Origin: Perkinsus olseni | Taxonomy: Eukaryota | DNA: 41,511 bases | Assembly (NCBI GenBank): GCA_013115125.1 | Contig: JABANN010000299.1 | Coordinates: 1 to 41,511 of the forward strand | Direction: 5' to 3' | In this document: in pieces, positions 3,379 to 33,010 of the stretch | How positions within the stretch are numbered: position 1 is the stretch's first letter | Layout of the letters: every line of letters begins with the position of its first letter | Program-made: the position numbers and the translations under genes | The notes under the pieces: generated by a model | Database searches by the model: none | Told to the model about the DNA's origin: nothing | Seen by the model: the letters and a program-made list of their open reading frames with translations, nothing else

Positions 3379-4370
3379 ATGTCTGCGGTGCGAAAAAGCC
3401 GTTTTCTGAGAGAACAGAAAATTCTTCCAGATCATTACGTACAGGAGTGTTCTTTTATCGAGGTTGTGCGCGCCGTCATGTCGAAATGGCTTTTCTTCCC
3501 TTGCAGGCAGTCTTCGGGCGCAAGTACTCCTACCAACCGAAGGGCCTCGCCAGGAACACCGGGTGGGGCAAGGTCGTCGTCGGAGAGGGATCGCTAGACT
3601 TGTTTTGTCAGGGGGGTCTCCGGACGCAGCAGAAGTCAAAGCATCATCTCCAGCCGGAAGCACGTGTGAGAGCTGTTCGGCATTTGAGGAGTCGACTGAA
3701 TCGATGTCCACTGATAAGGACCCGATTCTACTGGTATTTGGAAGTAATAATCGACGGGTGCGTGGATTGAACCGGCGACCATCGGGTCACTGGCTGGGGG
3801 ACCAATCGGAGCTGGTGGGAAAACAAACGGATCGCTCCAACGAATCTGCACGAGTTTAGATTCCGCCCACCCAATTTCTAGAGGAAAATGAGAGGTCCAT
3901 TCAACTGCTTCAATGATCGACCAGCGACCTTCACCTTTGATGGAGTAGGACCTACTCAGTAGGTGTTGTTTACAGCGCACAGCGAGTGCTCCATTGGACG
4001 CTCGTGTCGAGCGGCTTGTTAATAGCGTAGTAGTTGTCGTTACAGACGAATCGTTACTCGGAGGGAGTCCCCTCATCAGAACACGGTGACGATCGATCGC
4101 TGTGCCTCTTCTATTCTCCGCGGATTTACATACACCCGGTTTCCCAGCCTGGGAAGGGAAACCCGAAACTCGCTTACTGTGACCAAAATCAGTTATCGGT
4201 TGCTACACAGGCGAACCTATGCCGACTGGGCCTGTTCAACTGGCTGGCTCTAACATCTCTATGACTCGTACGATGACCCTTGCGAGGACTCAATATGGAT
4301 CAGATGGAGGAGGAGCATGAGAGGAGGAAGCCCTTCACGATCACTTTGTCCTGGATGTCTTATACGGTAT
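3379..4370 (+). CDS. Hypothetical multi-exon gene, unknown function
   Basis: ATG at 3379, followed by short exons bounded by GT/AG: MSAVRKSRFLREQKILPDHYVQECSFIE | AVFGRKYSYQPKGLARNTGWGK | ... TRFYWYLEVIIDG. The 3' exons and stop codon are ambiguous. Confidence 0.3.
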
Positions 4371-5055
4371 AAAAATCGGCATATATTACAATGGTTATTC
4401 TCAACGCCTTGGGGGTAGAGTCAATCCTTGCTCGAACCGCAGGGCTGAAAGGGTTGCGCTCCGAGGTACGACAACATATGCGAATCCTACTACTCCAGTT
4501 TGACGGCTTTCATGTTGAAAACGCAAACTCGAACATCTCGGAGCCATCAACTTGGCAGGCTCAGACGGACTCATCGGCCGAGATCTCGTTTGCTGTCTTG
4601 TTCTGAGTTCTCTCAACCAGCGTCTTAACGTTTGACGTTTGGAGTGTGAGGAACTTGAACTTGAGATTGTTGGTTCTCAAGATCAAGTTGAGGCTTTTAT
4701 ACCTGAGGATGACGATTACGAAGGAAGAATACCTCCGCACATTGTCGTATTACTCTTGCGACTGCCAAAGTCTTCTGTGAACAGTCTACTTAGTGGTGGA
4801 AGGGAGGGTGAGGGCTCGTGATGGTGGTGAGATAGGTCGCGTTTTGCCAGTGGTGAAACGCGAATGAGAAGACTCTCTGACTTCCAGCGGGCTGATGGCG
4901 TGGTCGATATGCTCGGCCCAGGTATGGTGGGTGACACAATTATTGTGTATATTCTTCCTTATTGAGGATTCGGTAAACGATGTTGACCTGACATTGAATT
5001 GCACGGGTATCGTTGTTGATGAGTGTGGTATCCAGGTAGCTCATTGAGCTCTTAG

Positions 5056-31610: not shown

Positions 31611-32275
31611 GGTGAGGCATTGCTTACCGGTTGATAAGTGTGTCGACCGGTTGCAGCTCTCTCAGGAGCTCTATGACCTGCTCTAAGTTCAATCGGGCAT
31701 GCTTCGCCGAATCTGACAAGGGTTGTGTATTAGACCAATCCGCATAATGCTCTGAGGGAATTGTGGGAATCCCGTTTCACTAGTTAGGATGCTTCACCCT
31801 CTTGCGGTGGCTTCACCTCGCTCTAACTAATCCGTACTGTCGGCGTTGGACTTCAAACTCACACACATCATCTCAGACGATCCCACCACGTACAAGAGGT
31901 AGTACAACGAAGAAAACTTGTTATCGAGTGCTCAATGCGGCCATGAGAACGGCGCTCCAACACGGAGTCTGCTGACCAGGGCAAGGTCTGCGTTTGCGCA
32001 CGCGCGCAAGATACGCACAGTGGCTCCTGTTCTCGGCACAACAGTATCAATGCATGAGTAATTGAATCACCCATGCCAACTCATTAGTAAGCGGGAATTA
32101 CTAATTCCCGCTCAGCTCATCAGTATCGCCCCCACAATTCTCACTTCCCCAATTTGGACTCCAAACTTTGAAAAGACCATCGAACGCCGTGATCGATCCT
32201 TCCAAGTAAATTCTACATCGATCACTAAGTTATCAAATCTCAAACGCGAAGGAAAAATTCTGAAAAGGCGAGAAT

Positions 32276-33010
32276 TCATTTTTCCTCCCGAGCCTTGCCT
32301 GAACGCCTGGACTTGACCAGCTCCCTTATTCTCCTTTCTAAGTCCTGTTCTGCAGGTCTGATGCCGAATGACATGAGCAGAGCTGCAGTTTGTTGATACG
32401 TGATGCTGAGAAACCCCCCAGGTCCCGGGTTCGAACCCCGCACCCGGCATCTCTACTCACCTCTCCTTGGCGATGTCAAGTAGCTTGTCGCTCTTTTTTC
32501 TAGGTGTTTGTCGAGGAGCGTATTTTCGATTTTTGTCGATTTGATGGCGAAACGCCATCACAACCTCTCGCAACCGCCACTCGGGTATTCCGTACCTGGC
32601 GAGAAAAAAATCTTCGCTGTGCGCAAAGATATCAAGTGTTGCACAAAATGTTCACCCATCGCCTCTCACGGTCGAGGATACCAGGCTCATGCGACCTCAG
32701 CTCGAAGAGAACGAGAGTGAGAACCCGCATCATGCCGGGATACATTCTTTCCCAGTAGTGCAATCTGATCCAATACAGCTCTCTAAATATTGTTCATCAC
32801 GAAATAATTGTCTCAATTCAATTCCGTTCGGTTTTTGCTGTGTCGTTTACAGCGTGACGCTATTGCACATTACTCTGATGTTATTATTATGTACGCTTTC
32901 GTGAAAGCCTTAGGCTTCTACTCATGACGAGCGTTTATCTACCACACTCACTTCAACATGCATTCTGACTCGACCTCTGTTGAACCGACAGAATCTCCCT
33001 CGAGGTTCAT
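32276..33010 (-). CDS. Hypothetical multi-exon gene, unknown function
   Basis: Strong minus-strand GTGAGT donors at ~32953 and 32460 with matching acceptors. Candidate last exon SITYQQTAALLMSFGIRPAEQDLERRIRELVK...*. The frame of the internal exons is ambiguous. Confidence 0.35.
32419..32449 (+). pseudogene. tRNA T-arm/B-box fragment filling most of a small intron
   Basis: CAGGTCCCGGGTTCGAACCCCGCACCCGGCA lies within predicted minus-strand intron 32407-32460. Confidence 0.5.

Follow-up and report, generated by a model that had tools for sequence, protein, structure and literature searches.

Loop-bounded 3' pieces of tRNAs in the introns and flanks of genes on a Perkinsus olseni contig

Introduction

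Why would the introns of one region repeatedly hold the 3' part of a tRNA, in either orientation and from different tRNA types? Repeats derived from tRNA are common, and among open-access papers and bioRxiv we found no account of tRNA fragments that stem from several types, keep only the 3' part, are bounded by loops and lack CCA. Here we analyze such a population in a 41,511-nt stretch of Perkinsus olseni DNA (contig JABANN010000299.1 of assembly GCA_013115125.1), which we call the window. A preliminary description had listed nine pieces with the core GGTTC(G/A/T)A, all of which we recovered at their places. Our sample is ten pieces in this single window, a density of about one tRNA-derived piece per 4 kb.

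The best protein matches of the window are to P. olseni at 94% identity, and close protein relatives are found only in NCBI Perkinsus records (4 matches). Transcript ends carry CTTGGCTCA, the sequence with which the P. marinus spliced leader ends on its 3' side (PMC3101222), followed by genomic AG.

Results

Exact B-boxes are enriched in the window

The exact B-box GGTTCRANNCC occurs eight times at seven loci (one palindrome is counted on both strands), compared to 0.65 matches expected, an enrichment of about 12-fold. B-box frequency is above that of shuffled sequence: none of 100 shuffles reached eight matches, and the top shuffle gave three. Exact B-boxes lie in six of the nine pieces listed earlier (7850-60, 7957-67, 12732-42, 15872-82, 16767-77 and 32428-38) and at a tenth locus absent from that list (153-163). 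The GGTTCDA core alone is found 29 times against 16.6 expected, and other loop cores set within the GG...RA..CC frame give 0-3 matches each.

Three further pieces carry B-boxes with one mismatch: A (3763-73), D (10908-18) and E (11102-12). This one-mismatch class shows no enrichment (23 matches against 17.9 expected, with 14 of 100 shuffles reaching at least 23), so that pieces A, D and E rest on their flanking sequence. The A-box TRGCNNANTGG is likewise not enriched in the window: its one match, compared to 1.6 expected, adjoins no piece, consistent with the earlier observation that the pieces have no A-box.

The T arm is nearly palindromic, with the B-box readable on both strands at 32427-38 and 153-163, and calls of orientation are therefore soft. 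Relative to their host genes six pieces are antisense and two are sense, a bias that is not significant by our own binomial estimate.

The pieces derive from more than one tRNA

Matches between the pieces and real tRNA genes span 23-30 nt, extending past the 11-nt B-box, and the pieces derive from tRNA. We set piece boundaries against tRNAs of viruses and metagenomes rather than the host's own, and these boundaries may be off by a few bases. More than one tRNA served as source: B and C resemble tRNA-Asn, G tRNA-Glu(TTC) and I tRNA-Ser, in agreement with the preliminary description's view that isotypes differ.

Piece B (7838..7876, minus strand) corresponds to an Asn-like 3' part from about position 36 to 72 with the variable loop AGGTC, and matches tRNA-Asn(gtt) of L001 at 26 of 28 bases. 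Piece C (7957..7983, minus) covers Asn-like positions 36-62, matching tRNA-Asn at 26 of 27 bases, and then ends abruptly. Piece G (16767..16796, minus) runs from the first base of a Glu(TTC)-like anticodon loop (CTTTCAT) to position 62, with 27 of 30 bases shared with tRNA-Glu(ttc) of L169. An 18-mer from G was found at 31 loci in a metagenome scan; 27 of these had no called tRNA over the match, most of the 27 appeared by eye to be unrelated sequence, and their number is about that expected by chance for a collection of this size.

Two pieces are Ser-like. Piece I (15861..15889, minus), with a T loop one base short, comprises the variable-arm, T-arm and acceptor part, and 59 of 82 matches to its word lie inside tRNA-Ser. 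We considered I as a nearly whole tRNA-Ser and rejected this reading, as 159 of 200 shuffles reached the score of the 5' part. Piece Z (147..194, minus), which holds the exact B-box at 153-163, aligns with gaps to a class II tRNA-Ser over its 3' part, from about position 37 to 87 (score 33, where shuffles reach at most 27; the reference was chosen independently of Z).

Piece E (11089..11128, plus) comprises positions 38 (approximately) to 73 followed by TTTTT and matches a real tRNA at 22 of 24 bases. Its 16-mer lies inside a called tRNA at 26 of 56 loci examined (57 were found), spread over so many isotypes that it names none. Piece F (12724..12757, plus) consists of AGGGC, T arm, acceptor strand CGGGTGC, A73 and TTTT. 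The Gly-like identity given to it earlier was not confirmed: its 18-mer occurs in Lys, Thr, Pro, Leu and other tRNAs, inside a called tRNA at 6 of 13 viral loci. Piece H (32420..32449, plus) has AGGTC, a T arm with four of five pairs, acceptor strand ACCCGGC and A73, and all four viral loci that contain its 19-mer have it at the 3' end of a tRNA.

Piece D (10894..10926, minus) has the variable loop AGACC, T arm, acceptor strand ACCCCGC, A73 and TTT; its score of 28 is marginal against a shuffle maximum of 25. The weakest member, piece A (3751..3789, minus), lies inside open frames of both strands and matches a phage tRNA-Gln at 24 of 28 bases from the second anticodon base to position 62 (score 34 against a shuffle maximum of 30; E=0.033). 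Outside the T arm, D, F and G (against our first library) match no better than shuffles, and word scans of viral contigs with an F 21-mer, a G word and a D 19-mer gave zero matches. Some pieces may also resemble particular vertebrate tRNAs (Tyr, Val, Ser), which we take as a lead and not as evidence.

Similarity is confined to the tRNA-like core

The variable loop AGGTC is exact in three of the ten pieces and present with one or two changes in four more, and the T stems form three or four of their five pairs. Acceptor strands differ among the pieces, with those of A, D and H alike (ACCCnnC). A 21-nt segment is common to B and C at 95% identity, and one of 15 nt to C and H. When 105-nt contexts were compared by short-word BLAST, similarity was limited to the tRNA-like core and no common tail or body emerged, bearing out the earlier statement that a shared tail is absent.

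A model built from the ten pieces scores its members at 25-35 bits and the next match at 13.4 bits, with none between. That next match is a decayed, weaker candidate for an eleventh piece (1668..1724, plus; AGACC, GGTTCGATCTC; E=0.16). With no common tail or body and no further members above 13.4 bits, the pieces are not copies of one SINE, in line with the preliminary description. Simple neutral decay of old insertions predicts a continuum of scores, and its absence suggests that the pieces are either young or constrained.

No whole tRNA gene is present

ARAGORN at default settings calls no tRNA gene in the window, and Rfam at E<=10 identifies no tRNA in the whole window or in the segments 7780-8010 and 10850-11150, where its only hit is a 15-nt T-arm match to the tmRNA model. 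Relaxing ARAGORN to 70-80% thresholds produces 24 and 169 calls (24 at 80%), mostly noise. One of the 24 noise-level calls folds 11036-11123 as a tRNA-Tyr(gta) with 7/7 acceptor pairs, and Rfam reports nothing there. We rejected functional tRNA genes, as neither ARAGORN at default settings nor Rfam finds a cloverleaf and the anticodon stem lacks its 5' strand.

The pieces are 3'-only and most begin at loops

All ten pieces lack the 5' side of the anticodon stem, and the number of pairs formed there is at the random level. When the window was compared to a library of 148 real tRNAs, significant matches were to 3' parts only, and no 5'-half match exceeded 13 nt; the claim that only 3' parts are present thus stands. 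At least six pieces begin within the 7-nt anticodon loop (position 32 in G, 35 in A, 36 in both B and C, and about 38 in E and Z), while D, F and H begin at the variable loop. These starts fall in single-stranded parts of the RNA, which a DNA break would not respect, suggesting that truncation tracks the RNA fold.

None of the eight pieces reaching position 73 has CCA after it, and T-runs directly follow this position in D (TTT), E (TTTTT) and F (TTTT). The TTTT reported earlier for F is present behind 12753, and the T-runs of D and E extend that observation to the pieces at 10897 and 11123. The lack of CCA together with a Pol III T-run suggests that the source was a gene or an unprocessed precursor. 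The acceptor strand is missing from C and G as well, both of which stop at position 62. This position is not in a loop, so C and G at least would need a further deletion or another origin. Separately, we rejected primer binding sites of LTR retroelements, as no piece end carries CCA or, on the reverse strand, TGG.

No target-site duplication of at least 6 nt flanks any of the ten pieces, as described before; the longest flanking direct repeat is 5 nt, in three of the ten, and the remaining seven have none. Other contigs share piece C up to exactly 7957 (two in X7, and five in X12, a divergent DNA run), and a second locus in X7 and X12 shares piece G up to 16796. The recurrence of these two boundaries at other contigs and loci suggests that pieces have been copied more than once. 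The loose-end sequences at 74 and 16796 were not found in the window.

Several pieces lie in introns

The introns holding B, C, D and E are spliced out in RNA contigs from three runs, among the 15 of 71 joints listed. A poly(A) polymerase gene (Pfam PAP_central at 7093-7305) has a 205-nt GT..AG intron at 7794..7998 (plus; joint 7792>7998 in X7, X8 and X16) that holds both B and C, with B antisense. The RNA contigs also define a 68-nt intron at 10876..10943 (plus), which holds D in antisense, and a 95-nt intron at 11037..11131 (plus), which holds E in sense, its T-run extending into the 3' splice site (TTTTTCAG). Piece H lies antisense to its host in a putative 55-nt GT..AG intron at 32406..32460 of a small minus-strand gene, whose frame stays open across the junction.

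The preliminary description placed most pieces near splice sites and several in short introns. RNA supports short introns for D and E, but B and C share one longer intron, in which B is 56 nt from the nearest splice site. Proximity to splice sites arises largely because the introns are only 55-95 nt long.

Two trehalase paralogs carry opposite B-boxes in the same intron

The trehalase 1 intron (12713..13061, plus; 349 nt) holds F in sense, 11 nt behind the 5' splice site; its acceptor was inferred from the reading frame (S|YFITLGL), and an RNA piece ends at 12710. The trehalase 2 intron (16758..16816, plus; 59 nt; frame S|YFIILGLL) has no joint among those listed and holds G in antisense, 9 nt behind the 5' splice site; piece I lies just upstream of the trehalase 2 mRNA. 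The two introns occupy the same position in the same phase, and the exons of the paralogs have a DNA identity of about 72% and a protein identity of 55-82%. In each of these old paralogs this intron thus has a perfect B-box, sense in one and antisense in the other.

Forward homology of the two introns was rejected, since 312 of 500 shuffles reach its score. They share only a 13-nt T arm in reverse orientation, a score reached by 8 of 500 shuffles. Random insertion explains the pair poorly: a rough, post hoc estimate puts chance co-occurrence at 1-2%.

Discussion

A proposed origin as truncated copies of tRNA precursors

The pattern is real and oddly regular, and most likely represents leftover tRNA-derived insertions rather than a new machine. 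With moderate confidence, we favor a model in which unprocessed tRNA precursors were copied with loss of the 5' part, the copies being tolerated nowhere but in non-coding DNA. The sources would be several tRNA genes, and the copies would be dead, spanning the anticodon or variable loop through the T arm; most would continue to the acceptor strand and discriminator, and three to the T-run of the Pol III terminator. Unprocessed Pol III precursors, or their loop-cleaved 3' pieces, would be copied through an RNA intermediate and inserted at random, with exon landings lost and copies in introns and flanks surviving in either orientation. The region is gene-dense and intron-rich, so that its non-coding DNA consists mostly of short spliceosomal introns. 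We infer the RNA intermediate, the insertion mechanism and a link to Perkinsus tRNA gene amplification. Several observations speak against this model: the lack of target-site duplications of at least 6 nt, the lack of a reverse transcriptase or transposase domain in open frames of at least 70 aa, the ends of C and G at position 62, the enrichment of exact but not of one-mismatch B-boxes, the gap in model scores and the trehalase pair. The earlier suggestion that tRNA 3' halves were captured is not supported for mature tRNAs, since CCA is found in none of the eight pieces that reach position 73 and three continue into a T-run.

Comparison with known systems

tRNA-derived SINEs have both an A-box and a B-box, and all their copies share a body and tail that do not come from tRNA. 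The pieces are similarly dispersed, tolerated in introns and B-box-bearing, but they have no A-box or shared body, and the terminator comes directly after position 73. Yeast ETC and chromosome-organizing B-box sites are intergenic and defined by TFIIIC occupancy. Like them the pieces have a consensus B-box with neither A-box nor transcribed tRNA, yet they keep far more tRNA sequence than a B-box. At prokaryotic integrase sites, duplicated tRNA 3' parts flank a large element beside an intact tRNA gene. The pieces resemble these duplications in running from the anticodon or T loop to the 3' end with no CCA, but here there is neither a large integrated element nor an intact tRNA gene. Introners form families whose near-identical copies bring splice sites of their own. 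Our pieces share with them the form of short insertions filling much of a short intron, but the copies here differ, and only 11037-11131 is co-extensive with its piece; introner elements are treated in an Amoebophrya paper (PMC7789003).

Mammalian tailless retropseudogenes are LINE-1-made partial copies of tRNA and other small RNAs (PMC5322556). They resemble the pieces in being tail-less partial tRNA copies, including unprocessed ones, truncated in single-stranded RNA regions. They are 5'-complete and 3'-truncated, the opposite of the Perkinsus pieces, which keep the 3' part, and they have 8-35-nt target-site duplications, whereas the pieces have none of at least 6 nt. The host here is an alveolate in which LINE-1 was not met in this analysis.

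Within the same genus, P. marinus is reported to carry five types of tRNA gene in over 500 copies, full-length at more than 95% of consensus length, and Dada DNA transposons insert into tRNA genes, splitting them at the A box (TAGCTC) (PMC3706591). P. marinus likewise shows an unusual excess of tRNA-derived sequence, but the pieces here are not full-length. A Dada break would leave 3' pieces from about position 8, whereas the pieces start at 32-44. Open frames in the window include no Dada-like frame or transposase domain, an absence that is weakly shown because Dada may be missing from Pfam, and frames of at least 70 aa hold no reverse transcriptase or transposase domain.

Alternative explanations

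A minority possibility is that the pieces would be selected isolated B-boxes: former whole tRNA genes may have decayed or been deleted except for the T-arm region, which would be kept for putative TFIIIC binding, as at extra TFIIIC or boundary sites. The roughly 12-fold enrichment of the exact motif with the one-mismatch class at chance, the gap between ten pieces at 25-35 bits and the next match at 13.4, and the reverse 13-nt T arm as the only sequence common to the trehalase introns all argue for such selection. A function at the DNA level would moreover be indifferent to orientation, matching the two orientations seen. A bare TFIIIC site, however, needs none of the variable loop, anticodon-stem 3' strand, acceptor strand and T-runs that are also kept, and selection leaves the sharp loop boundaries unexplained.

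We consider it unlikely that fragile, heavily transcribed tRNA-gene pieces were joined into double-strand breaks with no RNA intermediate. Such capture at the DNA level is consistent with the lack of target-site duplications, the missing CCA and retained genomic T-run, the presence of both orientations and fragments of only about 25-40 nt. Random breakage should, however, also yield 5' pieces and ends that ignore the RNA fold, whereas at least six of ten starts lie inside the anticodon loop and no piece keeps the 5' half.

That tRNA-gene units landed in exons and were spliced out from the outset, in the manner of introners, is very unlikely. The intron at 11037-11131 is almost co-extensive with a tRNA-like unit, and in the relaxed ARAGORN fold of 11036-11123 the intron's GT corresponds to tRNA positions 2-3 and TTTTT plus CAG to the 3' splice site. 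But that fold is one of 24 noise-level calls with no Rfam tRNA there, the splice sites lie outside the pieces in five of six host introns, the trehalase intron is older than an old duplication, and near-identical intron families are not seen.

Descent from a single decayed family, whether SINE or MITE, whose promoter region is related to tRNA is highly improbable. It would account for the sequence common to B and C and to C and H and for the similar acceptor strands of A, D and H, but likeness is confined to the tRNA-like core with no shared tail or body, the A-box is absent, tRNA types differ between pieces, and T-runs come directly after position 73. Chance, or a palindromic hairpin that is rich in GC and has no relation to tRNA, could draw on the nearly palindromic T arm and the two B-boxes that read on both strands (32427-38 and 153-163), but is scarcely credible given that 0 of 100 shuffles reach the observed count, that alternative loop cores number only 0-3, and that beyond the hairpin there are features with a direction (AGGTC on its upstream side, A73 and a T-run on its downstream side, and tRNA matches of 23-30 nt).

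Our favored model of truncated precursor copies may be combined with parts of these alternatives. In a joint reading that we hold only tentatively and regard as doubtful overall, a Perkinsus route would re-copy Pol III tRNA precursors or loop-cleaved 3' halves into the genome. Its full-length products would be the hundreds of extra tRNA genes and its truncated products the 3' pieces in introns; some B-boxes, such as those of the trehalase pair, may then have come under selection, and in at least one case (11037-11131) the insert may itself have become an intron.

Implications

If the pattern is not genome-wide, the pieces would be ordinary tRNA-derived debris in the only DNA that tolerates it. 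If it is genome-wide, retro-copying of Pol III precursors would offer a testable explanation of the extreme tRNA gene numbers of Perkinsus, and the pieces would be a natural record of the points at which tRNA precursors break. They would also invite the question whether inserts derived from tRNA shape, or even give rise to, short introns in an alveolate.

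The window holds a discrete set of B-box-centred pieces

The preliminary description had reported short tRNA-like pieces centred on GGTTC(G/A/T)A, and this observation is real. The full B-box consensus, GGTTCRANNCC, matches the window eight times at seven loci (one being a palindrome read on both strands), compared with a mean of 0.65 and a maximum of 3 in dinucleotide-preserving shuffles (n = 100); none of the 100 reached 8, placing the frequency above chance. The shorter GGTTCDA alone occurs 29 times in the window versus 16.6 expected. Alternative cores in the GG-xxx-RA-NN-CC frame gave 0-3 matches, the 3 being reverse readings of B-box sites, and the excess is therefore specific to the T-loop core. 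We found no enrichment of the A-box consensus in the window (1 observed versus 1.6 expected), and one-mismatch B-boxes as a class were not enriched there either (23 versus 17.9; 14 of 100 shuffles reached 23), so that the sites at 3763-73, 10908-18 and 11102-12 rest on their flanks and not on the motif.

We also identified a tenth locus, at 153-163, beyond the nine first listed. A covariance model made from the ten pieces recovered them at 25-35 bits, as expected by construction; the next-best match in the window scored 13.4 bits (1668-1724) and all others fell below 10 bits. The pieces are a discrete set and not the upper end of a continuum.

The pieces comprise only the 3′ part of tRNAs

In tRNA numbering, piece G (16767-16796, minus strand) starts at position 32, A (3751-3789, minus) at 35, B (7838-7876, minus) and C (7957-7983, minus) at 36, and E (11089-11128, plus) and Z (147-194, minus) at about 38, all within the seven-base anticodon loop. 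D (10894-10926, minus), F (12724-12757, plus) and H (32420-32449, plus) begin at the variable loop, and I (15861-15889, minus) begins in a long variable arm; its supposed 5′ part was not significant. BLAST of 148 real tRNAs against the window gave significant matches only from position ~35 onward (B, C, E, I and H, plus a marginal match at A) and no 5′-half match longer than 13 nt. In a reference-free test, a 5′ strand able to pair with the 3′ strand of the anticodon stem was found in none of the ten pieces; pair counts were 0-3 of 5, about chance, except that Z reached 4 under one assumption. On the 3′ side, eight pieces reach position 73, which is A in five, while C and G end at position 62. 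CCA follows position 73 in none of those eight, and D, E and F are directly followed by TTT, TTTTT and TTTT, respectively.

Similarity to tRNAs extends beyond the B-box. All ten pieces have a T stem with 3-4 of its 5 pairs formed, and the five bases ahead of it are AGGTC in B, C and H, AGACC in D, AGATC in E, AGGGC in F and TGGTC in A. Our reference tRNA genes came from public viral and metagenome contigs, not from the organism itself. Among these, a tRNA-Asn(gtt) of a giant-virus contig contains a 19-mer shared by B and C, and the match extends past it to 26 of 27 positions in C (positions 36-62) and 26 of 28 in B; judged by sequence, B and C are one, Asn-like type. G agrees at 27 of 30 positions with a eukaryote-type tRNA-Glu(ttc) on a metagenome contig; the alignment opens with the first anticodon-loop base and ends at position 62, and 9 of the 12 positions outside the search word are identical. 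For I, a 17/18-letter word gave 82 matches, of which 59 were in tRNA-Ser, 5 in Tyr, 4 in Lys and 1 each in Thr and Leu, with no tRNA called at the other 12. All four loci containing a 19-mer of H place it at the 3′ end of a called tRNA. A aligns at 24 of 28 positions with a tRNA-Gln fetched for another piece (score 34 versus a shuffle maximum of 30), and Z with a tRNA-Ser likewise fetched for another piece (33 versus 27). Of 13 loci with an 18-mer of F, 6 have it inside a called tRNA, and these tRNAs belong to several isotypes; outside the T arm, D and F scored no higher than shuffles. The original labels of G as Glu-like and I as Ser-like, and the claim that isotypes differ, thus held up, and the sequences indicate more than one source tRNA.

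Genomic setting of the pieces

The window is eukaryotic, with ~49% G+C and genes densely interrupted by short GT..AG introns. Pfam matches identify a poly(A) polymerase gene (~5283-12247, plus) and tandem trehalase paralogs 1 (~12036-15140, plus) and 2 (~15913-19700, plus). RNA contigs from three runs define the poly(A) polymerase introns 7794-7998 (205 nt, holding B and C), 10876-10943 (68 nt, D) and 11037-11131 (95 nt, E). Reading frames and paralog alignment predict trehalase 1 intron 12713-13061 (349 nt), with F 11 nt past the 5′ splice site, and trehalase 2 intron 16758-16816 (59 nt), with G 9 nt past it; one RNA piece ends at 12710. Frame logic suggests a putative 55-nt intron (32406-32460) holding H in a small minus-strand gene, and I sits just upstream of the trehalase 2 mRNA. 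E and F lie in the sense orientation of their host transcripts, and A, B, C, D, G and H in antisense. About three quarters of the examined poly(A) polymerase gene span is intronic, so a position inside an intron near a splice site is roughly the default for non-coding DNA here.

Two transcript contigs carry the nine-letter CTTGGCTCA directly before genomic AG, at 2947 and 12034; with the AG added, this sequence equals the 3′ terminus of PmaSL1, the Perkinsus marinus spliced leader given in PMC3101222. The trans-splicing acceptors in these RNA contigs lie at 2945-2948 (tcttgcAG/TTG) and 12032-12036 (cccaacAG/TTT). The 12034 acceptor falls within 11131-12247, a stretch still covered by a transcript contig of the upstream poly(A) polymerase gene, and neighbouring transcription units therefore overlap or are co-transcribed. 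At 2100-4200, a minus-strand run of long open frames (129-188 aa) lies beneath a plus-strand, spliced-leader-capped transcript. Within 5286-7500, many introns have G-rich runs just past the 5′ splice site (e.g. GTAGTTGGGGGAGGG, GTAATGAGGGCGTGAGGGGGGGAGGG), adding to the positive GC skew of plus-strand genes. The 1957-nt poly(A) polymerase intron 8283-10239 far exceeds its neighbours in length, and an unspliced contig of sequencing run X7 spans nearly all of it (8293-10216); we found no Pfam domains in its open frames, and a nested element or intron retention could account for it. Only four relatives of a 261-aa open frame (21128-21910) occur in the protein collection, each of them from Perkinsus olseni: three at 94% identity, the best, and one neighbouring paralog at 60%. 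Together with the spliced-leader end, these hits identify the organism as a Perkinsus close to P. olseni. This frame and similar ones at 25004-25834 and 26504-27310 are long, unsplit and cysteine-rich, with no Pfam family, suggestive of a tandem family of genes specific to the lineage.

Copies elsewhere in the genome

Rightward from exactly 7957, which is tRNA position 62 of C, the window is matched by two X7 contigs and by five from X12, a divergent DNA run; before that point they are dissimilar to it. In each run, one contig follows the window as far as 16796, where G's anticodon loop has its first base, and both continue with identical foreign sequence that is not found in the window. The common boundary and shared flank place a G-like fragment at a second locus in two strains. 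Separately, an X12 contig replaces 10456-10532 (intron 10443-10671) with 27 other letters including the T-arm-like GGGTCGATCCC, which may be a strain-specific tRNA-like piece. Breaks in X12 contigs also cluster at 2207 (4 contigs) and 11402 (7 contigs), suggesting further repeats with copies elsewhere.

Origin of the pieces

We give roughly even credence to a reading in which the pieces are copies, made through an RNA intermediate, of unprocessed Pol III tRNA transcripts. Pieces of primary transcript would be copied starting at the 3′ end, copying or the template itself would end in a loop, and copies would insert at random and be retained only where harmless. Survival of only the 3′ part argues for RNA from unprocessed precursors, as do break points in unpaired cloverleaf regions, a preference not expected of DNA breaks; ends bearing a genomic T-run and never CCA point to the precursor as source. 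Counting against this reading, we found no target-site duplications of at least 6 nt at the pieces and no reverse transcriptase in the window, C and G have a further cut outside any loop, at position 62, and the set is discrete, with exact B-boxes enriched but near-misses not.

Selection keeping the B-box at these sites is a less probable account, though the trehalase pair fits it. The paralogs are old (exon identity 69-77% for DNA and 55-82% for protein), and all their intron positions are apparently common, with greatly differing lengths (e.g. 349 versus 59 nt). The introns holding F and G share identical position and phase, yet a forward comparison finds no similarity between them, its score being reached by 312 of 500 shuffles. 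Each has a perfect B-box within 20 nt of the 5′ splice site, the two facing opposite ways (13 nt, 8 of 500 shuffles), a pairing that is hard to explain by random insertion. That a tRNA-like unit founded an intron is improbable and concerns 11037-11131 alone, which is almost co-extensive with such a unit plus terminator, a weak indication.

The nearest described class is that of mammalian tailless retropseudogenes, likewise partial tRNA copies truncated in loops but, as described in PMC5322556, of opposite polarity and with clear duplications. The pieces resemble extra-TFIIIC sites in sequence, a class defined by occupancy. They fell outside functional tRNA genes, tRNA-SINEs, primer binding sites, Dada flanks and introners. 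Among open-access papers and preprints, we found no literature on such fragments in Perkinsus or on 3′-only intronic tRNA fragments.

In Perkinsus marinus, five tRNA gene types are reported to total over 500 copies, and Dada transposons to target tRNA genes (PMC3706591), so surplus tRNA-derived DNA is in character for the genus, and we infer a link between the pieces and this amplification. Overall, in a sample of ten pieces from one window, the feature is real and non-random: tRNA-derived, 3′-only, loop-bounded and of several tRNA types. The pieces are probably debris left by insertion of precursor-tRNA sequence into a genome for which an excess of tRNA had already been reported.
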